This document shows, piece after piece, positions 336-22,432 of a stretch of 64,000 nt of DNA. A model generated the notes under the pieces. The model was not told the origin of the DNA and did not search any database. It was given only the letters and a program-made list of their open reading frames with translations. The number at the start of each line of letters is the position of its first letter. Position 1 is the first letter of the stretch. The stretch lies in assembly GCF_053078305.1 (NCBI RefSeq), contig NZ_CP166879.1; one strand, 5' to 3'. A program made the translations under genes and the position numbers.

Positions 336-626
336 TTAGTGATTCAGACCGTTGCCGCGTCCGTCGAGAAAAACTTCCACGAGCAAGTCACGGGTATAAG
401 TGCGCTCAATGCCGCGATGCAGATAAAGTCGTCCGCGTAAATTAGCTGATGCAGTCCAGGTACCATCTTTGCGTTTGACCAGCATTCCTGGCATGACCGC
501 ACCGCGATTAACGGTCTGCGTTCCGTAATGTTGATGAACCATAAAAACTCCTGCCCGTAAGCTGGGCTGCTGAACATATAAAGACTTCTGCGCGTATTCA
601 GGCGGTGGATGGCCGCCGGTTGTCAT
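336..626 (-). CDS. Hypothetical early-left (pL-side) protein
   Basis: 96-aa ORF between gam and the OL-like operator region; coding-like composition; no family recognised. Confidence 0.3.
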   Translation of the reverse strand: MTTGGHPPPEYAQKSLYVQQPSLRAGVFMVHQHYGTQTVNRGAVMPGMLVKRKDGTWTASANLRGRLYLHRGIERTYTRDLLVEVFLDGRGNGLNH

Positions 627-823
627 AACTAAGCCGCCTCGTTGAAGCGACTAAGGTATGAAATGTTGAGTTGATTTCAGCTGGTCACACCGACGTTCAC
701 GCGTCCGTTTCATCCCTCGCACTCCCCGAAGCCTGCTGAAATTCAAGCTGCGGATCTAAGCGGTCATCGCAACGGTGAATCAGGTGGTTGCCGTATCGTT
801 GTGTTGTTGCGATATGGTGATAA

Positions 824-863
824 TAGCTATTGCTATTGGTAATATCAATACTTATTGCTATTA
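824..863. promoter_or_regulatory. Putative OL operator cluster (GCTATTGCTAT-type repeats)
   Basis: Motif tagctattgctattggtaatatcaatacttattgctatta closely mirrors the cI-cro intergenic motif at 3496-3529. Confidence 0.4.
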
Positions 864-986
864 GTTGATGTGTTTTGATATTAAATGTTTGATAGCAAAA
901 AGAATTAATTTTGTGACTTGCATCGCATAGCGATAACTGAAGTGAGGTCGTGGTGGTTTTTTGAACGGTGTGTGATGAGGGGAGGG

Positions 987-1012
987 CAAAAGAAAACCCG
1001 GCAAGGCCGGGT
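987..1012 (-). terminator. Intrinsic terminator downstream of the 1047-2623 operon
   Basis: On the minus strand: CCCGGC-ctt-GCCGGG hairpin followed by ttttcttttg. Confidence 0.45.
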
Positions 1013-1046
1013 TGTTGATAAGGTATGTCACATACAATAATAAATT

Positions 1047-1889
1047 TTAGACTTGAGGAAGTATTTTTTTTGCAAAATCAATAGTTTCTTTGTGGCTGGA
1101 TGCAGGTATATGATTTATTTTCTTAGCATCCATAGTTCTCTTTATGATGTCAATAACTTTGCTTTGGCCTGAGTTTGGTGATTCAGGGGTTTCAATTGTG
1201 AATAGAATGTCATCAAGTGAAAGCAGGTTTTCTTCTGCTGCTCGAGTTATTCTCATCACCCAAGTATCACTATGCTCCATCATTTTTCCGGGTTCAGTTT
1301 GAGTGAATGCCAGAGGTTTGATGGCACATTGGATCCTGTCGTGCTTCTTGGCGACCAATGGCATTGAGAACTTTGCGAAATACCCATCAATAGTTGCTTG
1401 TTTGAAGACGTTCTTCAATCCATCTATTCTATCGATACTGCGTTTTAGCTCTCTAGCTAGGACATCTTCACGGCGCTCTTTTGTGTAGTCAGCGTGGTTT
1501 ACATATTTATTGTAAATGCGAGCCAACTCTTCTTTCGGGTTTTCACTGAGGATAACTCTCGTAGAGCTGAACTGAAAAATTGATTCTTTTTTGTTTGTAA
1601 AATATCTGAAGAATTGTGCAAGTTGTTGATGTCCAACAATCTGGGTAGCATGCATTTTTGCGAACTGGAGTTCTCTTTGTATTGAGTCTTTTGCTACGGG
1701 AAAAATGCAATCATCATGGAAGAAATTCTTTACACGAGAGTCATTTCGCTTTGTGAGATGGAAGTCAAAGTAATTTTCTTTTGGCGCGCACAGAAGTACG
1801 CCTATGTTTGCGAACTCTTCAGTCTCCGCATAAGGCGCATAGCGAACGATGCTATATAGGCATGGAGTTGTCATTCTATTGCGCTCCAA
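1047..1889 (-). CDS. DUF3037-like protein (tentative); second gene of immunity-region cargo pair
   Basis: 280-aa ORF; N-terminal motif YSIVRYAPYAETEEFANIGV recalled as typical of DUF3037; overlaps the upstream gene by 19 nt (operon). Confidence 0.5.
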   Translation of the reverse strand: MERNRMTTPCLYSIVRYAPYAETEEFANIGVLLCAPKENYFDFHLTKRNDSRVKNFFHDDCIFPVAKDSIQRELQFAKMHATQIVGHQQLAQFFRYFTNKKESIFQFSSTRVILSENPKEELARIYNKYVNHADYTKERREDVLARELKRSIDRIDGLKNVFKQATIDGYFAKFSMPLVAKKHDRIQCAIKPLAFTQTEPGKMMEHSDTWVMRITRAAEENLLSLDDILFTIETPESPNSGQSKVIDIIKRTMDAKKINHIPASSHKETIDFAKKILPQV

Positions 1890-2623
1890 AATTCATCACA
1901 ATCACCTTTGCCTAGCGTAGTGCAGACAAAAGGTAAAAACTCATCATCTACTATCCACTCCTCTGGAATTTCGTCAAGGATAGCAGGAAGTTTGTGTAAA
2001 CTGTCAACGACCCTCTGGCGGTACTCTACGCGATCCACTAAATCATACTGCCATTTGCGGTTACCCGGGCCGTACACGTGTACAGAAAAATCTTCAGGCC
2101 CAGCATTCTGATCAAATGATAGATTATGGTCAATCAGATAATACTTATCGTTACTGATGTCATAAAGGATATTGACGTTTCCGCCTTTATCAGTAAGCGT
2201 TCTGTCTGCATTTAATATCCACTTATCAAAAGCATAGATTAATTTTTGCTGTTCGACTGGGATGATCATTTCGTTTCTTGACTGCGTAAACGTTAACGCG
2301 ATTGCACCGTCTATGAACAATGAAGCAAAAGCATACCCTGTACAAATTTGTTGCTGCAGATCAGGTGTGTACTCTACAAGTTCCTCTGGTACAAATACGA
2401 TTTTAAAGTCAGGTAAAGGAAGGCCGATATCATTAGCCAGGCACGCCGAAATGAACTCAGCTAAGAGATTTTTCGGGGGCATTGATGGTTTAGATTTCAA
2501 AACATACAACTGCCCATCATCACATTTGCAAAGAAATGGCTGAGTGGAACCTTCATTGATGCGACGTATTACTTCAACGACATTAGGTATTGCACTACTG
2601 CTGCTTGCTTCGCGCTCCATCAC
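1871..2623 (-). CDS. Small kinase-like protein (HipA-like / atypical Ser-Thr kinase fold, tentative)
   Basis: 250-aa ORF; beta3-like QLYVLKSKP with conserved Lys and catalytic-loop-like YYLIDHNLSFDQN; lies directly downstream of cI on the same strand, the position rexAB occupies in lambda. Confidence 0.45.
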   Translation of the reverse strand: MMEREASSSSAIPNVVEVIRRINEGSTQPFLCKCDDGQLYVLKSKPSMPPKNLLAEFISACLANDIGLPLPDFKIVFVPEELVEYTPDLQQQICTGYAFASLFIDGAIALTFTQSRNEMIIPVEQQKLIYAFDKWILNADRTLTDKGGNVNILYDISNDKYYLIDHNLSFDQNAGPEDFSVHVYGPGNRKWQYDLVDRVEYRQRVVDSLHKLPAILDEIPEEWIVDDEFLPFVCTTLGKGDCDEFWSAIE

Positions 2624-2758
2624 TAACCCTTACGTGATTCAAGTCTTCCACCTCATTACTCCGCATCTCAAAGAGCGGTTCTACACAGCGTGTTTAAAGA
2701 AAAACAACAGGCTTCATTGCTGTAGCTGTTTTTCCGTAATGTCACTTTTGGTCTCGTT

Positions 2759-3451
2759 TTAACCATGCTTCCTGTACGTCTGAGGCATGCTCCCGATGAC
2801 CTTACCGAAGATGAATACACGGTTCATCTCGTCTTTCTCGATTGGGTCCCATGGTGAATAGCTCTTGTTGTCAGAGATAACCAGCAGCTTATCCTTCATC
2901 ATTTGAAGGCGCTTAACATGGGCCGTATCGTCGTAAAGGAACGCATAAATCCCGTCGCCGTCGAAAGATTTGATGGCGATATCGACGAACAGCAAGTCAC
3001 CCGGTTCGATCGTTCCTGACATGCTGTCACCGCGTACGTTAATGATGCGGATATTTTCTGCCTTCCTGCCATCGAACATGTGACGAGCATCGTCAAACGA
3101 GTACTCAACCGAGCGTAGGACTTCTACAAACTCACGGTTGATGACACCCGGCCCAGCACTGACTTCTATATCAAGAACGTCAATCTTGAAGTATTTGGAA
3201 TGGTTGACAGTAGGCTTCCCTGATTGTTGACCGTCATTTCTCATCGGGCCTATGCCTGATGAGAGCCACTCTGTTCGAACACCCAATGCATTAGCTATTT
3301 CAACAATTTTTGTTGAGCCGCGCGCGTTGCCGCTTGTCAGTCTCCAGATTGTGGGTTGAGCTACGCCAGACGCCTTTGCAAGAGCGCCTTGAGACATTCC
3401 AGATTGTTCCATCGCTAGGTTTAAGCGATCAGCAAGAGTTTCTTTTTTCAT
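2759..3451 (-). CDS. cI: CI-type prophage repressor (HTH plus LexA-like S24 peptidase domain)
   Basis: N-terminal HTH (MSQGALAKASGVAQPTIWRL), Ala-Gly cleavage site (VSAGPG), GDSM Ser motif and downstream KR Lys. ATG at 3451 preferred over the TTG at 3487 used by the ORF track. Confidence 0.85.
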   Translation of the reverse strand: MKKETLADRLNLAMEQSGMSQGALAKASGVAQPTIWRLTSGNARGSTKIVEIANALGVRTEWLSSGIGPMRNDGQQSGKPTVNHSKYFKIDVLDIEVSAGPGVINREFVEVLRSVEYSFDDARHMFDGRKAENIRIINVRGDSMSGTIEPGDLLFVDIAIKSFDGDGIYAFLYDDTAHVKRLQMMKDKLLVISDNKSYSPWDPIEKDEMNRVFIFGKVIGSMPQTYRKHG

Positions 3452-3495
3452 AAGTTTTAATTTATACGCTTGCGTATTGATGGTCAAAACACGTT

Positions 3496-3529
3496 TTGCT
3501 ATTGCTATGGTTAATACGCATTGCTATTA
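3496..3529. promoter_or_regulatory. Putative OR operator cluster in the divergent cI/cro promoter region
   Basis: ttgctattgctatggttaatacgcattgctatta lies between divergent cI and cro and matches the OL-like motif at 824-863. Confidence 0.45.
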
Positions 3530-3558
3530 TTTATTTGTTGTAATACCAATAGGAATTG

Positions 3559-3789
3559 ATGATGACAAATCAAACCATTCAACTCGCAATCAGTATTACA
3601 GGTAGTCAAAAACGACTGGCAGATCTATGCGGTGTAGCCCAGCCCACTGTTTGGCGTTGGCTACACGGTGGCGGAATTGATGCCCGCTATGTAATGAAAA
3701 TTGTCTCAGCCACTGGTGGAAAGATTAAGCCAGCAGATATTCGTCCCGACCTCGCACCATTGTTTAACGCGAGTAATTCTGCCGCCTAA
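3559..3789 (+). CDS. cro: Cro-like HTH regulator
   Basis: Small HTH protein (RLADLCGVAQPTVWRW) transcribed divergently from cI. Confidence 0.6.
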   Translation: MMTNQTIQLAISITGSQKRLADLCGVAQPTVWRWLHGGGIDARYVMKIVSATGGKIKPADIRPDLAPLFNASNSAA

Positions 3790-3813
3790 TCTGCGGCGTT
3801 AACTGATAAGGCA

Positions 3814-4359
3814 ATGATTATGCAACCACTTACATACCAACAGACTAGCGGATTTAGCCCGACTGCGGTGATAAATCGTTCTCAAACAAAACAGGCGCCA
3901 GGCCACGAAAAAATCCGTGATGCCGTCCGCGCCTGGTCGGCTGCAGATAATCAGGATGTTGTTGCCGCACTCATTGTGAATGAGTATCGGGAGCAGGGCG
4001 GCGGCACCATCGATTTCCCTGATGATGTCAGCCGTGCACGCCAGAAGCTGTTCCGCTTCCTCGATAACAAATTCGATTCTGAAAAATACCGAAATAACGT
4101 GCGTGAACTGACCCCGGCAATTCTGGCGGTACTACCGCTGGAATATCGCGGCCACCTGGTTGTGCAGGATAGCTTCATGGCTCGGCTGGCTGAAATGGAA
4201 AAGGAACTCAGTGAGGCAAAACAGGCTGTCATTCTCAACGCACCACGCCACCAGAAACTGAAGGAGATGAGTGAAGGCATTGTGTCGATGTTTCGTGTGG
4301 ACCCGGATCTGGCTGGTCCACTGATGGCGATGGTCACCACCATGCTGGGGGTAATATGA
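3814..4359 (+). CDS. Hypothetical early regulator in the cII position
   Basis: 181-aa ORF between cro and the replication genes; assignment by position only. Confidence 0.35.
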   Translation: MIMQPLTYQQTSGFSPTAVINRSQTKQAPGHEKIRDAVRAWSAADNQDVVAALIVNEYREQGGGTIDFPDDVSRARQKLFRFLDNKFDSEKYRNNVRELTPAILAVLPLEYRGHLVVQDSFMARLAEMEKELSEAKQAVILNAPRHQKLKEMSEGIVSMFRVDPDLAGPLMAMVTTMLGVI

Positions 4360-4445
4360 CAGGTTCAGAAATGGCGAAAGCCGGTCTGCGCGAACATAAC
4401 CGACTTTCAGGTGCAAATCGTAACACACTCATTGCGGGAGGAATT

Positions 4446-5375
4446 ATGGCAAACACTGCTGAGATATTCAATTTTCCAGTGCCGGATGTGGCACAAAAGG
4501 AGCCGCGCGTGGCAGATCTCGATGATGGTTATACGCGCATTGCAAATGAGTTGCTGGAAGCTGTAATGCTGGCCGGATTAACACAGCACCAGCTTCTGGT
4601 CTTCCTGGCTGTCATGCGCAAAACATATGGCTTTAATAAAAAACTGGATTGGGTGAGCAACGAGCAACTTTCCGAATTGACCGGGATATTGCCGCACAAG
4701 TGTTCTGCTGCAAAAAGCGTTCTGGTAAAGCGTGGGATTCTTATTCAGAGCGGGCGGAATATCGGCATCAATAATGTGGTCAGTGAATGGTCAACATTAC
4801 CCGAATCAGGTAAGAAAAATAAAGTTTACCTGAAAGAGGTAAATTTACCTGAATTAGGTAAGAAAAGTTTACCCAAATCAGGTAAAGGCACTTACCCGAA
4901 TCAGGTAAACACAAAAGACAAACTAACAAAAGACAATATAAAACCTTTTTCGTCCGAGAATTCTGACGAATCCTCTGACCAGCCAGAAAATGCCCTTCCT
5001 GTGGTGAAACCGGATGCTGCGATTCAGAGCGGCAGCAAGTGGGGGACAGCAGAAGACCTGACCGCCGCAGAGTGGATGTTTGACATGGTGAAGACCATCG
5101 CGCCATCAGCCAGAAAACCGAATTTTGCAGGGTGGGCTAACGATATCCGCCTGATGCGTGAACGTGACGGACGTAACCACCGCGACATGTGCGTGCTGTT
5201 CCGCTGGGCATGCCAGGACAACTTCTGGTCCGGTAACGTGCTAAGTCCGGCCAAACTCCGCGACAAGTGGACCCAACTCGAAATCAACCGTAACAAGCAA
5301 CAGGCAGGCGTGACAGCTAGCAAACCAAAACTCGACCTGACAAACACAGACTGGATTTACGGGGTGGATCTATGA
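4446..5375 (+). CDS. O: Replication initiator O-like protein (contains ori iterons)
   Basis: RBS ggagg before ATG 4446 (ORF track starts at 4356); gene contains the iteron array and precedes P; lambdoid architecture. Confidence 0.8.
   Translation: MANTAEIFNFPVPDVAQKEPRVADLDDGYTRIANELLEAVMLAGLTQHQLLVFLAVMRKTYGFNKKLDWVSNEQLSELTGILPHKCSAAKSVLVKRGILIQSGRNIGINNVVSEWSTLPESGKKNKVYLKEVNLPELGKKSLPKSGKGTYPNQVNTKDKLTKDNIKPFSSENSDESSDQPENALPVVKPDAAIQSGSKWGTAEDLTAAEWMFDMVKTIAPSARKPNFAGWANDIRLMRERDGRNHRDMCVLFRWACQDNFWSGNVLSPAKLRDKWTQLEINRNKQQAGVTASKPKLDLTNTDWIYGVDL
4796..4911. repeat. Lambdoid origin of replication: five ~19-bp iterons (TTACCyGAAwyAGGTAA) followed by an AT-rich tract
   Basis: Direct repeats ttacccgaatcaggtaag / tttacctgaaagaggtaaa / tttacctgaattaggtaag / tttacccaaatcaggtaaa / cttacccgaatcaggtaaa inside the O gene. 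Confidence 0.85.
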
Positions 5376-6073
5376 AAAACATCGCCGCACAGATGATTAA
5401 CTTTGACCGTGAGCAGATGCGTCGGATCGCCAACAACATGCCGGAACAGTACGACGAAAAGCCGCAGGTACAGCAGGTAGCGCAGATCATCAATGGTGTG
5501 TTCAGCCAGTTACTGGCAACTTTCCCGGCGAGCCTGGCTAACCGGGACCAGAACGAACTGAACGAAATCCGCCGCCAGTGGGTTCTGGCTTTCCGGGAAA
5601 ACGGGATCACCACAATGGAACAGGTTAACGCAGGAATGCGCGTAGCCCGTCGGCAGAATCGACCATTCCTGCCATCACCCGGGCAGTTTGTTGCCTGGTG
5701 CCGGGAAGAAGCATCCGTTACTGCCGGGCTGCCAAACGCCAGCGAGCTGGTTGATATGGTTTACGAGTATTGCCGGAAGCGTGGCCTGTATCCGGATGCA
5801 GAGTCTTATCCATGGAAATCAAACGCGCACTACTGGTTGGTTACCAACCTGTATCAGAACATGCGGGCCAATGCGTTGACTGACGCGGAATTACGGCGCA
5901 AGGCTGCCGATGAACTGTCCTGTATGACCGTGCGAATTAACCGTGGTGAGGCTATACCTGAACCAGTAAAACAACTTCCTGTCATGGGCGGTAGACCTCT
6001 AAATCGTGCACAGGCTCTGGCGAAGATCGCAGAAATCAAAGCTAAGTTTGGGCTGAAAGGAGCAAGTGTATGA
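5372..6073 (+). CDS. P: Replication protein P (DnaB helicase loader)
   Basis: 233-aa protein near-identical to lambda P as recalled (MKNIAAQMINFDREQMRRIANNMPEQYDEKPQ...). Confidence 0.9.
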   Translation: MKNIAAQMINFDREQMRRIANNMPEQYDEKPQVQQVAQIINGVFSQLLATFPASLANRDQNELNEIRRQWVLAFRENGITTMEQVNAGMRVARRQNRPFLPSPGQFVAWCREEASVTAGLPNASELVDMVYEYCRKRGLYPDAESYPWKSNAHYWLVTNLYQNMRANALTDAELRRKAADELSCMTVRINRGEAIPEPVKQLPVMGGRPLNRAQALAKIAEIKAKFGLKGASV

Positions 6074-6243
6074 CGGGCAAAGAGGCAATTATTCATTATC
6101 TGGAGACGCACAAGAGCTTCTGTGCGCCGGACGTTGTTGCGACAACAGGTGTGACATTAACCAGCATAAATCAGGCTGCGGCAAAAATGGCGCGGGCAGG
6201 AATCCTGGTCATTGATGGTAAGGTCTGGCGAACGTTTGTTTAA
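6070..6243 (+). CDS. ren: Ren-like protein, short (57 aa)
   Basis: MTGKEAIIHYLETHKSFCAPDV... resembles the lambda Ren N-terminus; ATGA overlap with the P stop; below the ORF-track length cutoff. Confidence 0.5.
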   Translation: MTGKEAIIHYLETHKSFCAPDVVATTGVTLTSINQAAAKMARAGILVIDGKVWRTFV

Positions 6244-6389
6244 CGGTTAGCTACTCAGGATGATAGGGCGGGGCAAGTGAGTATGAAGCGGATTTTCAGG
6301 AATGCCGTCAGAGTTTGGAAATAAAGTGGGTTTTCTAGTGGCAAGAGACTTGATAATATTTAGTTCTTTAAATCCAAGGAGATAGGGTT

Positions 6390-6884
6390 ATGAGAAAATT
6401 TATTTTAGCCTTTGTCATAAGTGCCTCGTTTACAGCAAATGCTGGTGTAGAGAAGTTAGGGCCGTGGATAACAAAGTCTGAGATAAATAAAATGACTGAC
6501 CAGACTGACTTTGTGGCTCTTAATTTATCACCAGATTCATATAACAAAGCAGGTACTGATCGTGCAACTTCACTGGTGTTGCGTTGTAGTGATAACAAAA
6601 CAGATGCCTATTTATCATTCAATGATTATATGGGTTCGGACAACCCAAGAATTACAGTGCGGTTAGATGGCGGAAAGCCGGTCAAGAGTGTTTGGGGAGG
6701 TGGGGAAGGCGGTGATTCTGCATTTGCTCCACAACCAATACAATTTATAAAGACCTTGGCTAAGCATAAAAAAGCTATTTTTGGGTTTGAACCTTATGGA
6801 TCAACTATGCAAGTAGTTGAGTTTGACTTGTCTGAGATTGATAAGGTTGTGGAAAAAATTTCACAGTCTTGCAATTGGAAATGA
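6390..6884 (+). CDS. Secreted hypothetical protein (signal peptide), AT-rich moron
   Basis: N-terminal signal peptide MRKFILAFVISASFTANA; low-GC codon usage compared with flanking phage genes. Confidence 0.5.
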   Translation: MRKFILAFVISASFTANAGVEKLGPWITKSEINKMTDQTDFVALNLSPDSYNKAGTDRATSLVLRCSDNKTDAYLSFNDYMGSDNPRITVRLDGGKPVKSVWGGGEGGDSAFAPQPIQFIKTLAKHKKAIFGFEPYGSTMQVVEFDLSEIDKVVEKISQSCNWK

Positions 6885-6904
6885 CAAAAAAATTTCATAT
6901 GAAC

Positions 6905-6930
6905 CCAGTTGGCGCTGGGTTTTTTATTTC
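6905..6930 (+). terminator. Intrinsic terminator after the secreted-protein gene
   Basis: cccag-ttggcg-ctggg hairpin followed by ttttttatttc. Confidence 0.4.
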
Positions 6931-7237
6931 AGTAGCCAATAATGCATTCAAAATCTCTTACTTGAGAAACGGCCTATTTGAGATTTCAGTCGTGGCAGGA
7001 TGATCAGTTGATTCGAGTATTGACGCATTTGCGTCATAATAGATTGCAGTAATTTCATTGCACTACGTGAACTGGTCATGACTCGTCACCGATTTTGTAG
7101 GATGCTTAGAAGGAAAACTATTGAATGCCACTGCAGCAGCACAACAGCTGGAGGTAAAATGAAGAACAAATTGACGGGAATTAGCATAGATACAAATCAA
7201 AGCTCTTAGAGGGCTTTTATTCTATGATAAATGGACT

Positions 7238-7582
7238 TTGTTTGAGAGTGATATTATGAAACCGAAGAAACTAAGAGCTGAGCAGCAGTACCATTTAGAC
7301 CTTGAATTAGTAAAGAAGAAGCCAGCGAACCGCACCGAGGCAAAAGCCCATTTGGCGGCACAATTACGGATTAGCAAGTACAAGACGCAGGCCTCTTCCA
7401 AAATTCGCGTTGGTAGTTTCAAGGGAAGAAAGAAGGTGCATTTTAGCCAGGCGGAAGAAGATGCTAGGAAGGCAATGGCTAAAGCTAATGCAGTTAGGTT
7501 TTCAGAAGGTGAGGTTGAATCCGTTGATACAGAAAGAATATCAGAAAGTAACAAACGCTGGCGCGGGAGAACCGCTGACTAA
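7238..7582 (+). CDS. Basic hypothetical protein (Lys/Arg-rich)
   Basis: 114-aa ORF; probable start at MKPKKL (7256); no family recognised. Confidence 0.35.
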   Translation: MFESDIMKPKKLRAEQQYHLDLELVKKKPANRTEAKAHLAAQLRISKYKTQASSKIRVGSFKGRKKVHFSQAEEDARKAMAKANAVRFSEGEVESVDTERISESNKRWRGRTAD

Positions 7583-7686
7583 TGTCTGATTTAGATATTG
7601 CAGCAAAGCTGTATGAAGAAAACACATTCATGGGCAGATGTGACATTACAGGGAGTTTTAGTTTTCAATTGCTGAAGACATCGAAT

Positions 7687-7710
7687 CATATTCATATTCA
7701 TATTCATATT
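7687..7710. repeat. Hexanucleotide microsatellite (CATATT)x4 in the 5' region of gene 7728-8273
   Basis: Four perfect tandem CATATT units ending 17 nt upstream of the ATG at 7728. Confidence 0.9.
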
Positions 7711-7727
7711 GTTTTGAGGGGTAATTT

Positions 7728-8273
7728 ATGGATGCAGGGATAGCCTCAGTTGTCGCCGCAATTATTGCCGCAGCTGCAGCTGGAGTGGGGCTTGTTATCA
7801 CTAAGGAGAATAAAACATCTGAGTTTCGGCAAGCGTGGATAGATGGTTTAAGGGAAGAGTTAGCCGAATTGATGGAGAACTTTTTACAATTACGCACGAC
7901 TCCGCCTGAGAAGCTCCCTGAGGTGGCTGGAAAAATTTATTTTCTTTCCGCAAAAGTGAAGCTTAGGTTATCCAGTAAAAACTTAACTAATGAAGAGTCT
8001 CAGCTTTTGAAAATCATTGAGGATTACATTTTAAAAATGGATCGCTCATCTAACATTACAGATGTGGTCAGACAGTATTTTGAATATAGTTCCAGTGTTC
8101 TTAAAACTGAGTGGGAGAGAGTGAAGCGAGGCGAGAAAAAATACAGAGTCGCTATCACGGTTTCGTACTCAATATTGGTTTTTTTGGGGCTCTATTTTGC
8201 TTCACGTTTCATTCCAGCGATAAGTGAAAAAATCTTAGAAATTATAGAGTTTTTAAATTATTCGTTGTTCTGA
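7728..8273 (+). CDS. Hypothetical membrane protein (hydrophobic segments near both termini)
   Basis: 181-aa ORF; hydrophobic N-terminal (IASVVAAIIAAAAAGVGLVI) and C-terminal (VAITVSYSILVFLGLYFA) segments; RBS gagggg. Confidence 0.5.
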   Translation: MDAGIASVVAAIIAAAAAGVGLVITKENKTSEFRQAWIDGLREELAELMENFLQLRTTPPEKLPEVAGKIYFLSAKVKLRLSSKNLTNEESQLLKIIEDYILKMDRSSNITDVVRQYFEYSSSVLKTEWERVKRGEKKYRVAITVSYSILVFLGLYFASRFIPAISEKILEIIEFLNYSLF

Positions 8274-8464
8274 TGACAAGCTTTGATTTTCCATAATCAA
8301 CTTGTCATAATTAAGTCACCGGAGCCTGAACAACTCCGGTGACTTCTGCGCTAAACGGGGACGTTTATGCGCACATACAATCCAAACTCTCTTCTCCCTT
8401 CACAGATGCAGAAATGTACCTGCGATTTTTTGCATCCAGCGTTTGACCTCTGCGGAGGTGAATC

Positions 8465-8920
8465 GTGAACCTCCTACAAGATGGCATCAAATTGCATCGC
8501 GGTAACTTCACCGCTATCGGCCAGCAGATCCAGCCTTATCTGGAGAACGGAAAATGCTTTCGCATGGTGCTTAAACCGTGGCGTGAGAAACGCAGTCTTT
8601 CCCAGAATGCACTCAGCCACATGTGGTACAGCGAAATCAGTGAATACCTCATCAGCAGGGGGAAATCGTTCGCTACTTCAGCATGGGTAAAAGATGCTCT
8701 CAAACACACATACCTCGGTTATGAAACCAAGGACCTGGTTGATGTCGTAACCGGCGAAATCACTACTATCCAGTCGTTACGCCATACCTCCGATCTTGAT
8801 ACCGGAGAGATGTATGTCTTCCTGTGTAAGGTTGAAGCCTGGGCGGTGAATATTGGCTGCCACCTGACTATTCCGCAGAGCTGCGAGTTCCAGCTGCTGC
8901 GCGACAAGCAGGAGGCGTAA
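8465..8920 (+). CDS. ybcN: NinB/YbcN-like nin-region protein
   Basis: 151-aa ORF at the head of the DLP12-type order ybcN-ninE-ybcO-rusA-ylcG-Q; contains an S-Q-N motif. Confidence 0.5.
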
Positions 8921-9090
8921 TGGCTACACCGCTTATTCGTGTCATGAACGGACACATCTACAGAGTACCAAATCGTCGTAAGCGTAAACCGGAGCTGAAG
9001 CCTTCCGAAATACCAACACTGCTCGGATATACCGCCAGCCTGGTTGATAAAAAATGGTTGCGACTGGCAGCAAGGAGGAATCATGGCTGA
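8920..9090 (+). CDS. ninE: NinE-like small basic protein
   Basis: 56-aa ORF ([30 protein letters not shown]...); ATG overlaps the preceding stop; below the ORF-track cutoff. Confidence 0.5.
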   Translation: MATPLIRVMNGHIYRVPNRRKRKPELKPSEIPTLLGYTASLVDKKWLRLAARRNHG

Positions 9091-9373
9091 TTTGAGAAAA
9101 GCAGCGCGTGGTCGGGAATGCCAGGTAAGAATCCCTGGCGTATGTAATGGCAACCCTGAAACGTCTGTACTGGCACATATCCGGCTGACTGGATTGTGCG
9201 GCACCGGTACCAAACCGCCAGACCTGATTGCCACCATTGCATGTTCTGCCTGCCACGACGAAATCGACCGCCGCACACATTTTGTCGATGCTGCATATGC
9301 AAAAGAATGCGCGCTGGAAGGTATGGCGAGAACACAGGTTATCTGGCTGAAAGAGGGGGTTATTAAGGCGTGA
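9083..9373 (+). CDS. ybcO: YbcO-like DUF1364 protein (putative nuclease, Cys-rich)
   Basis: [35 protein letters not shown]... matches DLP12 YbcO as recalled; real start is the internal ATG of ORF 9044-9373. Confidence 0.75.
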
Positions 9374-9732
9374 ATACCTACAGCATCACATTACCCTGGC
9401 CTCCGAGCAATAATCGCTATTACCGCCATAATCGCGGGCGCACGCACGTCAGCGCAGAGGGGCAGGCATACCGCGATAACGTCGCCCGAATCATTAAAAA
9501 CGCAATGCTGGATATCGGCCTGGCTATGCCTGTGAAAATCCGCATTGAGTGCCACATGCCGGATCGCCGTCGCCGTGACCTGGATAATCTGCAAAAAGCC
9601 GCTTTTGACACACTCACTAAAGCAGGTTTCTGGCTGGATGATGCTCAAGTCGTTGATTACCGCGTTGTGAAGATGCCTGTTACCAAAGGTGGGAGGCTGG
9701 AACTGACCATCACCGAAATGGGGAATGAATGA
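9370..9732 (+). CDS. rusA: Holliday-junction resolvase RusA
   Basis: 120-aa protein [31 protein letters not shown]... matches E. coli RusA as recalled. Confidence 0.9.
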
Positions 9733-9869
9733 TGTTTGAGTTTTATATGGCAGAACTTCTTCGCCACCGCTGGGGGCGTCTGCGCTTATATCGTTTCCCC
9801 GGTTCTGTTTTGACCGATTACCGAATACTGAAGAGTTACGCCAAAACCCTGACAGGAGCAGGAGTATGA
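9729..9869 (+). CDS. ylcG: YlcG-like small protein
   Basis: 46-aa [29 protein letters not shown]... immediately after rusA, as in DLP12. Confidence 0.5.
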
Positions 9870-9954
9870 AGTCAGAGATAACAATCAACTAATACTGTTT
9901 TGTTGATTTTTGCTTGTAATTGGCGTTCTGGTCTGATTTTTGTGGAGTAAGTTG

Positions 9955-10338
9955 ATGCGTGATATTCAGATGGTTCTTGAGCGTTGGGGAGCGTGGGCGG
10001 CTAATAATCATGAAGATGTGACCTGGTCGTCCATTGCCGCCGGTTTTAAGGGATTAATTCCTTCAAAAGTAAAATCTCGCCCGCAATGTTGTGACGATGA
10101 CGCGATGATCATTTGCGGGTGCATGGCCCGTCTGAAAAAGAACAACAGCGATTTGCACGATTTATTAGTAGATTATTATGTAGTCGGTATGACATTCATG
10201 TCACTGGCAGGTAAGCATTGCTGCTCTGATGGTTATATCGGGAAAAGGTTACAGAAGGCTGAGGGTATAATTGAAGGGATGTTAATGGCATTAGATATCC
10301 GGTTAGAGATGGATATCGTTGTTAATAACTCTAATTAA
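9955..10338 (+). CDS. quuD: Late-gene antiterminator Q (QuuD / phage-21-type)
   Basis: [34 protein letters not shown]... matches the DLP12/21-type Q as recalled; ORF track starts 15 nt upstream. Confidence 0.8.
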
Positions 10339-10527
10339 TATGCCAGTTGTTTACTAAAAGTTATTAAAAATGGGGCGTTGCAACGCCCCCCAAAATAAAG
10401 GGTAATATATAACAGAAGGTTTATATAGTTAGAAGCAAGGTTGTGCTCCTAAAGGAAGTGGCTTGAGGGAGCCACTTATATGTTGGGGAGGCAAAGCCTC
10501 CCGCAACATATCTTTTTCGTAATCAGA

Positions 10528-11626
10528 TTAGAACTGGTAAACCAGACCTACAGCAACGATGTCATCAGTGCTTACACCGAGTGCTTTAGTGAAGTCATTT
10601 TTGTCAAGCAGGTTGATTTTGTAATCAACGAAAGTAGACATATTTTTGTTGAAGTAATAGGTTGCACCTACATCAACATATTTGACTAAGTCCTGATCGC
10701 CCCATACTCCAAGATCCTTACCTTTAGATTGCAGGTAAGCAACGGACGGACGCAGACCGAAATCGAACTGATATTGTGCAACAGCTTCGAAGTTTTGAGC
10801 TTTATTAGCAACGAAGTGATCAGCAAATACAGTCATATTCTGGGTTTCAGAATAGGTAGTGGCCAGGTAAATGTTGTTAGCGTCATATTTCAGACCTGCG
10901 GCCCAAACTTCTGCATTTTTACCGGAAGCAAATACTTCAGGAAGAACTTTCCCTGCATTAACTTGAGTGTCGGTACGATCAGATTTCGCATAAGTTGCAC
11001 CGATACCGAATCCTTCGTATTCATAGGTAGCAGAGAAACCGAAGCCATCACCGTTACCTTCGGTGTAGTTATCGAAATCGCTACGATCGTTTTTGCCTTG
11101 GTACTGAGCAGCAAAGTTCAGACCATCAACCAGACCAAAGAAGTCGTTGTTACGATAGGTTGCAACACCAGTGGTACGACCAGTCATGAACACATCTGTT
11201 TGGGTCCAGGGTATCGCCACCGAATTCTGGCAGAACGTCAGTCCACGCACCGATGTCGTATGCTACACCGTAGTTACGGCCGTAATCGATTGAGCCGTAG
11301 TCACCGAATTTCAGGCCTGCAAATGCAAGACGGGTTTTGTCTTTGGAGGAACCTTGAGATTCAGCGCGGTTGCCTTTGAATTCATATTCCCACTGACCGA
11401 AACCAGTCAGCTGATCGTTGATTTGGGTTTCGCCTTTGAAGCCCAGACGAACATAAGTAGTATCACCATCATCTGCATCGTTAGAGGAAAAGTAGTGCTT
11501 GGCATTAACTTTCCCGTACAGATCCAGCTTGTTACTGTCTTTATTATAAATTTCAGCTGCCTGAGCAGACATCGCCATCAGTACTGATGCAGCTACAGCA
11601 GAAATTGCCACTGTTAATTTTTTCAT
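10528..11626 (-). pseudogene. nmpC: OmpC/NmpC-family porin moron, disrupted by a frameshift near 11150-11250
   Basis: Two overlapping minus-strand ORFs (10528-11250, 11150-11626) jointly encode a porin with signal peptide and C-terminal VYQF; the 1099-nt span is 1 nt off a multiple of three; an extra C in gataccCtggaccc near 11215 is suspected. Confidence 0.7.
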
Positions 11627-12214
11627 CGTGAGCCCTTTTTTTTGAACTATTATTAAAAAATGATGTCACTGCGAGATAAATATTCATCTAATCAATGTGA
11701 TTATTTCAAGATGTAAGTTTTAGTTTCTCATTTAATTTGTGAGGTAGATCTCTATTTTTATCTGAGCTTTTTCTATCGAAACCTATTTATGGCTCTTATT
11801 TGAACAAAAATAAACCTATTAGCTAATTTATATTAATGGCTGTTATTTATGGAGGTTCTATAATTCGGCGGTTTAATTTAAATCAACTAAAAATAACGCC
11901 GGAAATTATTTATTGGATATTTGTTGAGGTTTTCTTATGTATTTGTGGTGGTGTTTTGAACACTCGGTAGCATTCTCATAAATATCATTCAGTGGTTTAC
12001 GTACGTAAAAAATTGGTTATGCTGTTAAGAGTGGTTACTTCGTCACACAGCTTAAACCCGCCGTCGAGCTGGTTTTTCCATTTTTTGAGTCTCGATATTA
12101 GCTGATAACTCAATACCTGAGTTATTCACTGACTCCGAGTCTGTTACGTTTCTGCTTTTTTGCGATACGTTGTATTCCCTCAATTTACACCCGCTTTGTC
12201 TGCGAGGTGGGGTT

Positions 12215-12430
12215 ATGAAATCCATGGATAAGTTAACAACGGGTGTCGCCTATGGCACCTCAGCAGGTAGTGCCGGTTACTGGTTTTTACAGCTGCTCGA
12301 TAAAGTCACGCCCTCACAGTGGGCAGCAATAGGTGTGCTGGGTAGCTTGGTATTTGGCCTGCTGACGTACCTGACAAACCTTTATTTCAAGATTAAAGAA
12401 GATAAGCGCAAGGCTGCGAGAGGTGAATAA
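12215..12430 (+). CDS. S: Class II holin/pinholin (S21-type) with dual-start motif
   Basis: [29 protein letters not shown]... matches phage-21 S as recalled; Met-Lys-Ser-Met dual start. Confidence 0.8.
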
Positions 12431-12927
12431 TGCCTCCATCATTACGAAAAGCCGTTGCTGCTGCTATTGGTGGCGGAGCAATTGCTATAGCATCAGTGTT
12501 AATCACTGGCCCAAGTGGTAACGATGGTCTGGAAGGTGTCAGCTACATACCATACAAAGATATTGTTGGTGTATGGACTGTATGTCACGGGCATACAGGA
12601 AAAGACATCATGCTCGGTAAAACGTATACCAAAGCAGAATGCAAAGCACTCTTGAATAAAGACCTTGCCACTGTCGCCAGACAAATTAACCCGTACATCG
12701 AAGTCGATATACCGGAAACAACGCGCGGCGCTCTTTACTCATTCGTTTACAACGTGGGTGCTGGCAATTTCAGAACATCGACGCTTCTTCGCAAAATAAA
12801 CCAGGGCGATATCAAAGGCGCATGTGATCAGCTACGTCGCTGGACATATGCTGGCGGTAAGCAATGGAAAGGTCTCATGACTCGTCGTGAGATTGAGCGT
12901 GAAATCTGTTTGTGGGGTCAGCAATGA
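12430..12927 (+). CDS. R: SAR endolysin (signal-anchor-release lysozyme, R21-type)
   Basis: Hydrophobic N-terminal SAR domain ([20 protein letters not shown]) followed by a lysozyme-like domain. Confidence 0.85.
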
Positions 12928-13385
12928 ACAGAGTAACCGCGATTATCTCCGCTCTGGTTATCTGCATCATCGTCTGCCTGTCATGGGCTGTTAATCATTA
13001 CCGTGATAACGCCATTACCTACAAAGCCCAGCGCGACAAAAATGCCAAAGAACTGAAGCTGGCGAACGCGGCAATTACTGACATGCAGATGCGTCAGCGT
13101 GATGTTGCTGCGCTCGATGCAAAATACACGAAGGAGTTAGCTGATGCGAAAGCTGAAAATGATGCTCTGCGTGATGATGTTGCCGCTGGTCGTCGTCGGT
13201 TGCACATCAAAGCAGTCTGTCAGTCAGTGCGTGAAGCCACCACCGCCTCCGGCGTGGATAATGCAGCCTCCCCCCGACTGGCAGACACCGCTGAACGGGA
13301 TTATTTCACCCTCAGAGAGAGGCTGATCACTATGCAAAAACAACTGGAAGGAACCCAGACGTATATTAATGAGCAGTGCAGATAG
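12924..13385 (+). CDS. Rz: Spanin inner-membrane subunit Rz
   Basis: [39 protein letters not shown]... matches lambda Rz as recalled. Confidence 0.85.
13144..13326 (+). CDS. Rz1: Spanin outer-membrane lipoprotein Rz1, embedded in Rz in the +1 frame
   Basis: [24 protein letters not shown]...PPPPPAW... with lipobox and proline-rich stretch; matches lambda Rz1 as recalled. Confidence 0.8.
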
Positions 13386-13416: not shown

Positions 13417-13701
13417 TTATTGTGAGCAATACACACGCGCTTCCAGCGGAGTATAAATGCCTAAAGTAATAAAACCGAGCAATCCATTTACGAATGTTTG
13501 CTGGGTTTCTGTTTTAACAACATTTTCTGCACCACCACAAATTTTTGCTGCATCGACAGTTTTCTTCTGCCCAATTCCCGAAACGAAGAAATGATGGGTG
13601 ATGGTTTCCTTTGGTGTTACTGCTGTAGGTTTGTTTCCAACAGTAAACGTCTGTTGAGCACATCCTGTAATAAGCATTGCCAGAGCGGCAGAAAACAACA
13701 T
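13417..13701 (-). CDS. bor: Bor lipoprotein (serum-resistance-associated)
   Basis: Lipobox LITGC and ...ETITHHFFVSGIGQKKTVDAAKICGGAENVVKTETQQTF... match lambda Bor as recalled; the lambda N-terminal MKK is absent because the A-run is one nt shorter. Confidence 0.85.
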   Translation of the reverse strand: MLFSAALAMLITGCAQQTFTVGNKPTAVTPKETITHHFFVSGIGQKKTVDAAKICGGAENVVKTETQQTFVNGLLGFITLGIYTPLEARVYCSQ

Positions 13702-14921: not shown

Positions 14922-17850
<2,929 letters not shown>

Positions 17851-17977
17851 TTATGTCTATCATCTCCCCGTAGTTGTCCGCATCGTTCGCCAACTCCACT
17901 GAAACCCTTGCTGCGGCTGGAATGTCGTTTTCCATACTTTTGATGACCGTTCATCACACTTCCAGGTTTTCGCGGTT

Positions 17978-18031
17978 TTGTGTATTGCAATGTGTATTGC
18001 AAATTGGCGATCGGGATGGGTGTGTATTGCA
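17978..18031. repeat. Three copies of TGTGTATTGCAA upstream of the island integrase (attL-proximal, putative integrase binding sites)
   Basis: Copies at 17978-17989, 17990-18001 and 18020-18031; the same motif occurs in tandem at 29588-29610 near the other island end. Confidence 0.7.
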
Positions 18032-18050
18032 AATCTCTTGAGGGCTGTTA

Positions 18051-19292
18051 ATGGCTATTGAAAACAAACTCAGTGACAAACTGTTAAAGAGTCTTGTCGG
18101 AAAACGGCAGGACAAACAAAAAACAATAGCGGATGGGCGCGGGTTGTCTGTGCGTGTAAGCATGGTTGGGGGGATCAGCTTTGTTTTTTACTATCGTCTT
18201 GGTGGCAGGGAATCCCCTCCGGTATGGCTTACACTTGGGCGCTATCCTGATATGTCTCTTGCAACAGCCAGGCGCATGCGTGATCAGTGCCGTGAGTGGC
18301 TGGCTGAAAATCTGGACCCCCGCAGGCAAATAAAACTTGCCGCCGAAAAAACCATGCAACCAGTGACCGTAAGGGATGCGCTGTTTTACTGGTACGACAA
18401 TCACGCCACAACAGCCAGAAAAGAGCATGAATATTTAATAAAACGATTTGAAAAGCATATCTTCCCCTATATCGGTGATATGGCTATAGAACAGTGCAAA
18501 TTACACACATGGCTTGCCGTCTTTGACAGGATCAAAAAAAATGCGCCTGTTATGTCTGGTGCAATTTTTCTTGATATCAAACAGGCGTTGCGTTTTTGTC
18601 GCGTCAGGCAATACATCGCGTGCGATCCCTTTGGCGATATTAACGTAAGTTATGTCGGGCGCTCATCCGGTATAAGGGATCGCGTTCTTAATATCAATGA
18701 AACAGCGGATGTATGGTCTTATGCTTACGGTAATAATTTGCTGACACTGTCATCAATACATAACAGAAGAATAATGGTTATCTGCCTGGTGTTTGGTTGC
18801 CGTCAGCAGGAGGCGAGGTTATCCACATGGGACGAATGGGATTTAAAAAACTGGGTATGGACAGTCCCAAAAGAGCACAGCAAAAACAAGGAGGCCATAG
18901 TAAGGCCTGTTCCTGACGGCATAAAACAATGGCTCGTTAATCTTTACGCAGAAACAAAAAATCGCGGTTATGTTGTCGGTTGTGCTTTGCAAAGGGCGAC
19001 AATAACAGGGGCTGCAAACAGAATATGCAGGCGTCTTGGTCATGATATTAATGGCTTGTGGTGCATACATGATTTCAGGCGCACATTTTCCACTGCGCTT
19101 AATGATATGGGGGCGGATCCTTATATTGTCGAACTTCTTTTAGGTCATAAAGTGAAAGGGGTTGCCGGTGTTTACAATAAAAGCAGGCATATAAAGAAAA
19201 AACTTGAGGTGCTTAATATGTGGGTTAATTACCTTAATACGATAGCAGGATTTAACAACAACGTTATCGAGCTTAATAAAGAGGTGGTGTGA
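18051..19292 (+). CDS. int: Tyrosine integrase (P4-type, N-terminal arm-binding DUF4102-like domain)
   Basis: 413-aa ORF; N-terminal region resembles P4-family integrases; C-terminal catalytic motifs HDFRRTF, LLGH and VYNKS (Tyr). Confidence 0.9.
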   Translation: MAIENKLSDKLLKSLVGKRQDKQKTIADGRGLSVRVSMVGGISFVFYYRLGGRESPPVWLTLGRYPDMSLATARRMRDQCREWLAENLDPRRQIKLAAEKTMQPVTVRDALFYWYDNHATTARKEHEYLIKRFEKHIFPYIGDMAIEQCKLHTWLAVFDRIKKNAPVMSGAIFLDIKQALRFCRVRQYIACDPFGDINVSYVGRSSGIRDRVLNINETADVWSYAYGNNLLTLSSIHNRRIMVICLVFGCRQQEARLSTWDEWDLKNWVWTVPKEHSKNKEAIVRPVPDGIKQWLVNLYAETKNRGYVVGCALQRATITGAANRICRRLGHDINGLWCIHDFRRTFSTALNDMGADPYIVELLLGHKVKGVAGVYNKSRHIKKKLEVLNMWVNYLNTIAGFNNNVIELNKEVV

Positions 19293-19293
19293 T

Positions 19294-19551
19294 ATGGCAA
19301 TTTATTCTCTTGTTGATGAAAACGATTTGCGCACAATGAAGGACATTGATCGGTTCATTCGTGAAAAAGAGTGCATAGCACTTACCACGCTGGCAAACTC
19401 AACACGCTGGAAAATGGAGCAGGCAGGTAAATTCCCGCGACGTATCAAGATCGGTGAACGTGCGGCAGGGTATCGACTTTCAGAGGTTCAGGCATGGATC
19501 CGTGGTGAGTGGCATCCTGGATGGAAACCTGGAAAAACAAAACAGCAATAA
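19294..19551 (+). CDS. alpA: AlpA-family excisionase/transcriptional regulator
   Basis: 85-aa HTH protein (ALTTLANSTRWKMEQAGKFPRRIKIGERAAGYRLSEVQAWI) immediately downstream of int. Confidence 0.7.
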   Translation: MAIYSLVDENDLRTMKDIDRFIREKECIALTTLANSTRWKMEQAGKFPRRIKIGERAAGYRLSEVQAWIRGEWHPGWKPGKTKQQ

Positions 19552-19605
19552 CCAGTAAATAACGCCCCTCATCAAGAGGGGTTTTTGTCTATAGGGTAAA
19601 ACGCG

Positions 19606-20184
19606 ATGAATAAAAATATTGCCGTGACGGGCAAGGGGTACGCTCGTCCAGTGAAAAAATTCTGTGATATTCGTGATCTTGTCGTTCTGCGCTTTGATGG
19701 TGTGAGCGTTCGCGTGGTGTATGTGAACGGCGATCCGTGGTTTGTTGCCGTTGACGTGTGCGCTGCGCTGGAAATTGTTGATCACAAGGTTGCGTTACGC
19801 CGTCTCGATGATGATGAAAAGGGGGAGTGTTTAATACCCACCCCAGGTGGAAATCAAACAATGCGAACGGTATGCGAGTCAGGGTTCTACAAACTAATCG
19901 CCAGAAGTCGGAAAGCTGTTACTCCTGGCACGTTCGCCCGTCGTTTCAGTAACTGGGTATTCAGAAATGTGATACCAGGTATCAGAAAAACGGGGGCTTA
20001 TGGTATCCCGTGGGGGGCATTACAGGATTTTTCCCGCCGTAAAGAGCAATATCAAATAAGTGCCAGCGAGAAGGGGAGGGAGCTACAGGCATGTAAGCGC
20101 AAAAAACGTGAACTGGAGGAAGAAGAAAAAAGGCTGATACGTGAATATCAGCCTGAGTTTTACTTTGGTGAGCGTATTCAGTAA
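19606..20184 (+). CDS. Bro-N domain protein (prophage antirepressor-like)
   Basis: N-terminal Bro-N-like region (VRVVYVNGDPWFVAVDVCAALEI...FYKLIARSRKA) with a charged coiled C-terminus. Confidence 0.6.
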   Translation: MNKNIAVTGKGYARPVKKFCDIRDLVVLRFDGVSVRVVYVNGDPWFVAVDVCAALEIVDHKVALRRLDDDEKGECLIPTPGGNQTMRTVCESGFYKLIARSRKAVTPGTFARRFSNWVFRNVIPGIRKTGAYGIPWGALQDFSRRKEQYQISASEKGRELQACKRKKRELEEEEKRLIREYQPEFYFGERIQ

Positions 20185-20521
20185 CCACACGCGGTGCTGA
20201 TTATACGGTACATCGTGTTAACCGAGAAGCTACCCACCAGCAAGGCAAAATCTTCTGCTAAAAAATGACATATGGCCAGTCGTCCGGAAAGCATGAAATT
20301 TTACAAAAATGGAAAATGAAGATTTTTATTGTGCTGGTGGGTAAAAACAAAAAGCGCCCCGTTGCCGGAGCGCCCTTGTGAACAATTAACCTGCTGCGAA
20401 AAAATTGGATCAGTGCAGGGAAATTATATCAACTGTGTGAAGAAGCGCCACAATTGCCAGTTTAGCTTTGCGGCGAACGCGTCAATAAAGAATATTCTTT
20501 CTTTAAATTCTGTTTGTGTAT

Positions 20522-20551
20522 TTTTTCGTAGTTTTTCGTAGTTTTTCGTAA
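20522..20551. repeat. Tandem decamer repeat (TTTTTCGTAG)x3 in island intergenic region
   Basis: ttttttcgtagtttttcgtagtttttcgtaagg; a related palindromic motif cgaaattttcgtag occurs at 29194-29207. Confidence 0.8.
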
Positions 20552-20647
20552 GGAGAAAGAGCGGCGCGTATGCACCGCTAAGGAGTTTATTTTCATGACT
20601 TATGCAGCTTTCAATCTTAGCACCGCCGTAGCTGGTGGACAAGGCTA

Positions 20648-20875
20648 TCAGCCAGGCGGTCGGTTTTTAGTGGCTTTTAACCGCCGTGGGTATTTCTCGA
20701 CAAAATCTTCAAGGGCAAATTTTTCTGGTGGCACTAAGCGCGGCGCTGGTGGTGGTATTTTTGTTCTGGTTAGTTCTTCCTCAAGTCTGGCGCAGGCTTC
20801 TAACTGCCTTTGCCGGATGATTTCATCATCTTGCGTTTGCGTGTCTTGTATTGGTGATAGTGTGTTGTTGGTCAT
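20648..20875 (-). CDS. Hypothetical protein (island, leftward operon)
   Basis: 75-aa acidic ORF downstream of the RHH gene on the minus strand; weak RBS. Confidence 0.35.
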   Translation of the reverse strand: MTNNTLSPIQDTQTQDDEIIRQRQLEACARLEEELTRTKIPPPAPRLVPPEKFALEDFVEKYPRRLKATKNRPPG

Positions 20876-20932
20876 GATACTGCCCTGTAAAGCAATGCGC
20901 CGGAGTACCTCACGCCACGGCGCTGATAGTGA

Positions 20933-21238
20933 TTATTCTGATTCTTGGGTCTTGCGACGCTGGAGTTCTTCGCGTGCAACGGTGACAAGTTGCCCGATTT
21001 CTTCCGCTGCTTTGATGCCGATTTGTTCGACCTTAGCCAGAGCATCCAGTGAAGACACAAGGGGATTTTCTCCGCTGCCTTCTGCCTGGCGGCGGGCGAT
21101 TTCACCGCGCATGGCGGTTACTATGAATCCGGCGTTGCTTTCACCGTCCAGTTTTACGGATTCCATGCCTTCAATAACATCATGCGGGATCCGAGCTGTC
21201 AGTGATTGTGATTTTGCGTTTTTTGAACCTGTAGCCAT
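20933..21238 (-). CDS. Ribbon-helix-helix (CopG/Arc-like) putative regulator, divergent from the island rightward operon
   Basis: SLTARIPHDVIEGMESV resembles an RHH beta-strand plus helix; ATG 21238 with RBS gaggat preferred over the TTG at 21253. Confidence 0.45.
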   Translation of the reverse strand: MATGSKNAKSQSLTARIPHDVIEGMESVKLDGESNAGFIVTAMRGEIARRQAEGSGENPLVSSLDALAKVEQIGIKAAEEIGQLVTVAREELQRRKTQESE

Positions 21239-21797
21239 CTGTAATCCTCTCAATGAAAGTGTAAGACAATATACACATAAAAAGTCTTACATAAAAGCAT
21301 TGACATGTAAGCCACCTATAAATAAAGTTACTTACACCTTGTTAATGCAAGGTGCAGAAACGACGAAACCCGGCAGTGCGCTAACACTAACCGGGCTTCT
21401 AACCACCAACGATAGAAAGCGTATCGAGGTAGCTATGAGAAATCATACCACACACCCGCAAGGGCGGGACTCGCACAACCTGAATAAATACATCTGGCGT
21501 TTTCTGGCCCGAAAAAACCAGTTGATCGCCAGTGTCGAAAATAGCTATGATTCCCGCGCACCTCATAAAACGGGTGCCGGGATTGGCGTCCTGGGCAAAA
21601 CTGAAGCGCATAACACGCGCCCCGCGTGTTTTTTTGTGCCGCATAGTCACACCTTATCAATGGTGGGCTGTACGGGGGCGGAGCAATCCGCGCCGGTTTC
21701 TTCAGTGTCCGGTTACGCCAACCCTGTACAGTCCGCCACCAGCGAAATTGGCGTTTCCGGTGGCGGTTATCTTAACCACACTGAGGAGGCTGCCAAC

Positions 21798-21989
21798 ATG
21801 GCTACTATCCCTACCCTTGTACATTCTCAAACCGCCTTTCTCTGGCGCTTTATCATCTTTGGCGCGTCAGACCATCAAATCATCCACGTCACCGCCTGGA
21901 CGGAACGCGAAGCGCGTAGCCGTTGCCCGTCCGGTTGTGTTGCTGTATTCGCCGCCCGTATTCGTCAGGAGGTGTGCCATGTGCAATAA
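21798..21989 (+). CDS. Icd-like small protein (host cell-division inhibitor family, tentative)
   Basis: 63-aa ORF with strong RBS gaggagg; MATIPTLVHSQTAFLWRFIIFGASDHQIIHV... recalled as resembling Icd-like proteins of P4-type islands; it is the only plausible part of ORF 20595-21989. Confidence 0.4.
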   Translation: MATIPTLVHSQTAFLWRFIIFGASDHQIIHVTAWTEREARSRCPSGCVAVFAARIRQEVCHVQ

Positions 21990-22431: not shown

Positions 22432-22432
22432 T

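Follow-up and report, generated by a model that had tools for sequence, protein, structure and literature searches.

The window (the whole stretch of 64,000 nucleotides analysed here) hosts a lambdoid prophage whose porin gene is shifted out of frame by a single extra C. We propose, with a probability of roughly 0.65, that this frameshift is a real and null lesion that arose recently and privately in one strain, through the decay of a dispensable accessory gene. The finding matters little in itself and its practical consequences are modest: the porin locus should stay annotated as a pseudogene, and Escherichia coli strain 48 should be scored as Lc/NmpC-negative unless the extra C proves to be an error.

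The locus is the lc/nmpC gene of E. coli strain 48, carried by a lambdoid prophage of the DLP12/PA-2 type, and its transcription converges with that of the late operon. According to our proposal, one C was inserted into the CC dinucleotide of codons 139/140. A ribosome that begins at the normal start then reads 139 native residues, comprising the signal peptide and roughly the first third of the barrel, followed by 19 wrong residues and a stop. Such a product could not fold into the 16 strands of a porin, and the downstream frame is not preceded by a signal peptide, so that the allele is most likely null. The insertion would be very recent and strain-private, an instance of the ordinary mutational decay of dispensable prophage accessory genes, and a further 1-bp indel would have recently disabled the tape-measure gene of this prophage as well. 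Fixation of the porin frameshift was presumably neutral.

The porin locus and its lesion

The porin lies on the minus strand and is split into two overlapping open reading frames (ORFs) with a joint span of 3n+1 nucleotides, as the first-pass annotation of this DNA had described. The locus and its immediate neighbours are composed of the following features:

10528..11626, minus strand: lc/nmpC-type porin pseudogene, whole span of 1,099 nt (3 x 366 + 1; the intact gene has 1,098 nt and encodes 365 aa)
11150..11626, minus strand: N-terminal porin ORF of 158 aa, from the ORF list; matches Pfam Porin_1 positions 1-111
10528..11250, minus strand: C-terminal porin ORF of 240 aa, in the native downstream frame; matches Pfam Porin_1 positions 111-337
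11209..11211, minus strand: porin lesion, a CCC run that is CC in all relatives (alignment with intact alleles)
9955..10338, plus strand: quuD-type Q antiterminator, from the ORF list; quuD is annotated at the equivalent position in GMM060, GDAR2-2 and K-12
12215..13385, plus strand: lysis cassette with essD (holin), rrrD (lysozyme) and rzpD/rzoD, from ORFs 12170..12430, 12430..12927, 12912..13385 and 13144..13326 and the annotation of relatives
10372..10389, minus strand: hairpin resembling a terminator, about 140 nt past the stop codon of the porin (consensus match only)

The two ORFs match complementary stretches of the 337 positions of Porin_1 (PF00267; E-values of 1e-53 and 7e-99 for the N-terminal and C-terminal fragment, respectively) and are therefore halves of one general porin. 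The N-terminal ORF contains the signal peptide (residues 1-23), the native residues up to T139 and a 19-aa out-of-frame tail that ends at a stop. Native residues 140-365 correspond to positions 10528-11208 within the C-terminal ORF, which in its natural context has neither a signal peptide nor a start of its own. Both hallmarks of the family are present, namely a signal peptide of the form MKK...AQA followed by AEIY and a C-terminal aromatic residue (...VYQF). These two ends are found in different reading frames rather than in a single polypeptide, which makes the locus a pseudogene and not a functional porin of this family. A simple sigma-70 scan returned no promoter-like site around the porin gene.

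An extra C near position 11215 had been named as the likely lesion. The alignment with the intact allele of GDAR2-2 (L001) places it at 11209-11211, 4-6 nt away, and shows that it is the only difference between the two alleles across 1,221 bp (gataCC[C]TGGaccc). The inserted base falls at CDS positions 416-418, in codons 139/140, and when one C is removed in silico the CDS becomes nucleotide-identical to the intact 1,098-nt gene. In its intact form, the aCCTGGa at the lesion is one of the two Dcm (CCWGG) sites of the porin gene.

The repaired protein of 365 aa is WP_000737283.1, and its CDS is nucleotide-identical to the genes in GDAR2-2 and in a sibling contig (L023, GCA_051333645.1). It shares 99.2% identity over all 365 aa with Lc of phage PA-2 (lc, GenBank J02580.1) and is 100% identical to the porin of the temperate phages Turner and PhiR29_1, which is called OmpD in some annotations. 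K-12 NmpC, once reconstructed across its IS5, differs from the repaired porin at 3 amino-acid positions. The score of the repaired porin against the NCBIfam OmpC subfamily (527.8 bits) is above the cut-off of 484, while its scores against the equivalog models for PhoE and OmpF fall below the respective cut-offs. Solved chains of OmpC, OmpF and PhoE align to residues 24-365 (phmmer E-values from 1e-130 to 1e-136; about 1e-131 to 1e-136 for OmpC, OmpK36 and PhoE, with OmpC/OmpK36 at about 1e-136), and the mature OmpC chains start to align at residue 24. OmpC, OmpF and PhoE (PDB 2xe2, 2j1n and 1pho) thus share the fold family of the repaired porin, but they are general porins of which the porin in the window is a prophage-borne paralogue. 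Judged by its sequence, the porin is the classical lysogenic-conversion porin Lc/NmpC, an already-known gene.

The position of the gene agrees with this assignment and with the earlier description of a moron that encodes an NmpC/OmpC-family porin and separates Q from the lysis cassette. The porin lies on the minus strand between Q (9955-10338, plus strand), a late-operon gene with which it is convergent, and the holin (12215-12430, plus strand), in an order common to K-12, GMM060, GDAR2-2 and JNE23-011. It is flanked by ybcN, ninE, ybcO, rusA, ylcG and quuD on one side and by essD, rrrD, rzpD/rzoD and bor/iss on the other, which is the gene order of DLP12. The lc gene of PA-2 also occupies a late-region position beside the lysis genes, and some sources give the name 'outer membrane porin protein LC' to the protein that is identical to the repaired porin; the copy in the window differs from lc in the +1 C frameshift.

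The comparison with K-12 is equally close. K-12 nmpC (b0553) in DLP12 is an ortholog with about 97% nucleotide identity, it lies in the same neighbourhood (ybcN-ninE-ybcO-rusA-ylcG-quuD-nmpC-essD-rrrD-rzpD-borD), and both copies are pseudogenes. As the first-pass annotation stated, the K-12 gene was inactivated differently, since IS5B interrupts it 58 bp before its 3' end, whereas the copy in the window is broken by a 1-bp insertion one third into the gene. The prophages also differ: DLP12 is a 21-kb remnant at argU, whereas the prophage in the window is found next to the argW/intS region and retains a complete complement of head and tail genes.

The lesion is confined to this strain in all collections that we searched. 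The best 40 matches among 5,426 complete E. coli genomes cover the 1,221-nt query in 1,220 nt, which is the intact length. None of the 2,041 genomes that match the 80 bp around the lesion shares it at an identity of 99% or more, the best match being 98.8%, equivalent to one gap. A 45-nt sequence bearing the lesion is absent from 100,044 GTDB representative genomes (exact-pattern scan), and no public gene call corresponds exactly to the 158-aa or the 240-aa product of the frameshifted gene. A 221-aa form that starts from an internal ATG is on record in six contigs, none of which has the extra C; one of the six (L008) is merely a contig that ends at a Nextera adapter. The sibling contig L023 is 99.7% identical to positions 1-13047 of the window, and its porin CDS, which encodes an intact protein of 365 aa, equals that of the window minus the extra C. 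Since the gene otherwise matches intact copies at every nucleotide, the lesion is either very recent or not real.

Real base or consensus error

We consider it fairly likely that the extra C is really present in the DNA of strain 48. The draft genome JPQG00000000 belongs to E. coli strain 48, a subAB2-3-positive STEC from roe deer (PMC5323612). Positions 8051-29293 of the window are identical to the draft contig JPQG01000003.1 (GCA_000736735.1) save for one poly-G tract, and positions 31527-54925 match the same contig with 100% identity over 23,399 bp. The poly-G tract (22188-22198) lies in the non-coding 'Bro zone' of a satellite and reads G11 in the window and G10 in the draft, which may reflect either a variable tract or a homopolymer-calling discrepancy between the two strain records. 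Because this homopolymer differs, the window appears to be a separate record of strain 48, probably independent of the draft. The helicase of the satellite is also found on a 5.94-Mb contig. The draft carries the extra C at about JPQG01000003.1:736300-736302, where no gene is annotated between Q and the holin.

The porin is not the only frameshifted gene of the prophage:

36564..39124, plus strand: tail tape-measure gene with a private 1-bp indel relative to GMM060 (L003), where ccGGcg has become ccGcg (about 37211-37212)

This indel, called against the closest prophage (that of GMM060), splits the 853-aa gene into ORFs 36564..37253 and 37214..39124. It is shared by none of 3,486 complete genomes, and the gene is intact (853 aa) in three records with the prophage at the same chromosomal site (L017, L019 and L021) and in L022. 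Relative to L019 and L021, it is the only indel in about 22 kb, besides 22-39 substitutions. If real, the frameshift would leave the helper prophage unable to make tails. That a gene unrelated to the porin also has a frameshift private to the strain speaks for either decay that is not gene-specific or an error of assembly.

The latter is the main alternative to decay. The extra C could be a residual error of assembly or consensus, in which case the porin of strain 48 would be intact and the missing G of the tape-measure gene would probably be an error as well. Several features of the data speak for this explanation, which we regard as doubtful but worth keeping in mind. Both lesions are 1-bp changes in the length of a G or C run, both are private to the strain, and both occur in sequence that matches intact siblings exactly or almost exactly. 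Apart from them the prophage appears complete, since the split in its portal gene is due to a satellite whose excision restores that gene. The porin lesion is found in no read-derived (Logan) assembly. The draft is a 2014 long-read-type assembly with megabase contigs, sister strains of strain 48 were sequenced by PacBio only (PMC5323612), and the two strain records disagree at the poly-G. Moreover, the intact porin site is a Dcm motif (CCTGG), and Dcm sites are a known hotspot of nanopore consensus errors. This context matters for nanopore but not for PacBio sequencing, and two-base runs, the only runs involved here, are unusual sites for errors in polished long-read consensus. Also against an error, draft and window, as two distinct strain records, agree on both frameshifts, and the general density of errors is low, with the G10/G11 tract as their sole difference over 44.6 kb.

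The distribution of lesions along the window fits decay and error equally well, with two private frameshifts in 64 kb and no private indel in 14 kb of chromosomal genes. The chromosomal genes for omptin, hydrolase, intS, yfdC, mlaA, yfdF, fadL, yfcZ and fadI all have their expected lengths. We also considered the start of bor/iss, where A7 is shortened to A6 at 13701, as a third lesion of the prophage. This candidate was rejected because the shorter run is a natural allele, present in 19 records at 100% identity and annotated as iss. The lipoprotein gene (13417-13701, minus strand) has the A6 run at its 5' end, and its ORF starts with MLFSAAL... and encodes 94 aa.

Losses of lc/nmpC in other strains

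Independent inactivation of the same moron in K-12 and in the window had been taken as a hint of selection against the porin. The frameshift would then be real and fixed by the advantage of losing the porin, whether because phages or colicins that use Lc/NmpC are evaded or because permeability or the tolerance of heat is altered. The first part of this argument holds, as lc/nmpC has been inactivated independently on other occasions:

K-12 DLP12 nmpC: two-piece pseudogene, IS5B
Phage 434 record: same IS5 as in K-12, after codon 346
UTAK-2 (bovine isolate) and SRR34854876: +T frameshift at CDS position 70; UTAK-2 is flagged 'frameshifted' by PGAP
SRR14012081 (Logan assembly): nonsense change, AAA to TAA
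ERR6384881 (Logan assembly): nonsense change, TAC to TAA
ERR14842445 and SRR22784661: apparent IS junctions
E. coli B derivative: truncated copy

The porin pseudogene of E. coli UTAK-2 (ABH553_RS06935) is the nearest parallel, being the same gene in the same context with an independent 1-bp insertion, although the inserted bases differ (+T at CDS position 70 and +C at 416-418, respectively). From their terminal repeats, the junction sequences in ERR14842445 and SRR22784661 (L007 and L009) appear to be ends of IS10 and IS1. An IS10 in nmpC has also been described in Salmonella Paratyphi A AKU_12601 (PMC2658671). As for possible benefits of the loss, work cited in PMC8544407 reports that NmpC increases the sensitivity to colicins and phages, so that its loss could be advantageous in some settings, and that it affects heat resistance.

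The step from recurrent loss to selection finds no support, and we consider a selective cause of the frameshift improbable. A reading of independent inactivation as selection needs a denominator, and the intact allele outnumbers the broken one by orders of magnitude: the exact intact protein is found on at least 1,000 contigs, as opposed to 6 for the broken form. In an even-step sample of genomes, we identified 17 carriers of the porin, composed of 10 with an intact gene, 5 K-12 derivatives that share one IS5 event, 1 B derivative and UTAK-2. The porin is thus intact in 10 of the 11 sampled carriers that are not laboratory strains, as it is in sequenced temperate phages. Each knock-out, including the one in the window, is confined to one strain or lineage. 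The K-12 allele and that of the window differ by 21 synonymous and 7 non-synonymous nucleotide changes (pN/pS about 0.10), which indicates purifying selection. Finally, the prophage has an equally private frameshift in a gene with no relation to the porin, that of the tape measure, so that no gene-specific cause is needed. Overall, the data signal purifying selection, interrupted now and then by losses private to a lineage, and a dispensable accessory gene is expected to behave in this way. Neutral decay or a residual assembly error fits these data better than selection against the porin. Local selection for the loss of the porin is conceivable. In a wider form, the knock-outs of lc/nmpC might reflect episodic, lineage-specific positive selection for loss, for example where the porin acts as a receptor for phages or colicins; we think this hardly probable, and if it were true the moron would switch from a benefit to a liability.

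The last alternative, to which we give practically no credence, is that the split is functional and that a programmed +1 ribosomal frameshift or a phase-variable tract yields the full-length porin. A GGUGG with a weak resemblance to a Shine-Dalgarno sequence is found 4 nt upstream of ACC-C, but this feature is superficial and the GGUGGCGAUACC context is found in in-frame alleles too. The lesion site reads GAU ACC CUG and, judged from these bases and general knowledge, it does not pair a slippery codon with either a slow A-site codon or a stimulator: CUG is a common codon and not a slow one, and tRNA-Thr would be unable to re-pair on CCC. Phase variation would call for a long homopolymer or a short tandem repeat inside the coding frame, and the tract at hand (CCC versus CC) is a 3-base run, far too short for this or for transcriptional slippage. 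As the extra base occurs in no relative that we examined, with sibling and phage copies all in frame, nothing is conserved at this site, and on this basis a programmed frameshift is excluded. Decay of a dispensable gene remains our preferred explanation for the porin frameshift.

Satellite and other features of the window

The portal gene of the prophage is split by an 11.8-kb satellite (about 17851-29688) at Pfam Phage_portal_2 position 241 or thereabouts. It encodes an integrase, AlpA, a Bro-N anti-repressor-like protein, ASH, a RepA/AAA_25 helicase, SSB and PerC, together with a lambda-E-like major capsid protein, a head decoration protein and a Nu1-like small terminase protein. Its integrase lies 6.4 kb from the porin. 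It belongs to the helper-embedded PICIs that Tommasini, Mageeney and Williams described in 2023 (PMC10111431) and occupies a site of their catalogue, B:Phage_portal_2:241. We rejected the idea that the interrupted portal gene proves the prophage dead, because satellites of this kind excise on induction and restore the late gene that they split; the insert is therefore no evidence of decay.

A similar element occupies the same portal site in JNE23-011 (L016). Strain 48 carries a second copy of the helper-embedded PICI (L012/L015, JPQG01000004.1), which shares 99.6% identity over 8 kb with positions 17727-25774 of the window. This copy, too, interrupts a portal gene immediately behind gpW, but in another lambdoid prophage, and the genome therefore contains two helper-embedded satellites.

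A pair of minus-strand genes (1047-2623) adjoins the CI-like repressor, in the position of lambda rexAB. The two genes encode a DUF3037 protein (about 280 aa) and a HipA_2-like protein (about 250 aa) and match the PADLOC candidate defence system PDC-M66B/PDC-M66A (E-values of 1e-15 and 5e-15). Between genes of the nin region, the window has an extra TCATAT unit of a short tandem repeat (7686-7691) compared with GMM060 and L023.

The stretch from the right end of the prophage to tRNA-Arg(CCU)/argW (50535-54925) encodes an alpha/beta hydrolase of 494 aa, an omptin (OmpT-like protease) of 317 aa and an IntS-type integrase. It is a small island remnant at argW. The hydrolase is interrupted by an ISL3 element in GMM060. 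The chromosomal flank (50200-64000, with yfdC, mlaA, yfdF, fadL and fadI) shares no more than about 97.6% identity with its best match among the 5,426 complete E. coli genomes. This suggests either that complete genomes include few members of the lineage of strain 48 or that the divergence is local to this region.
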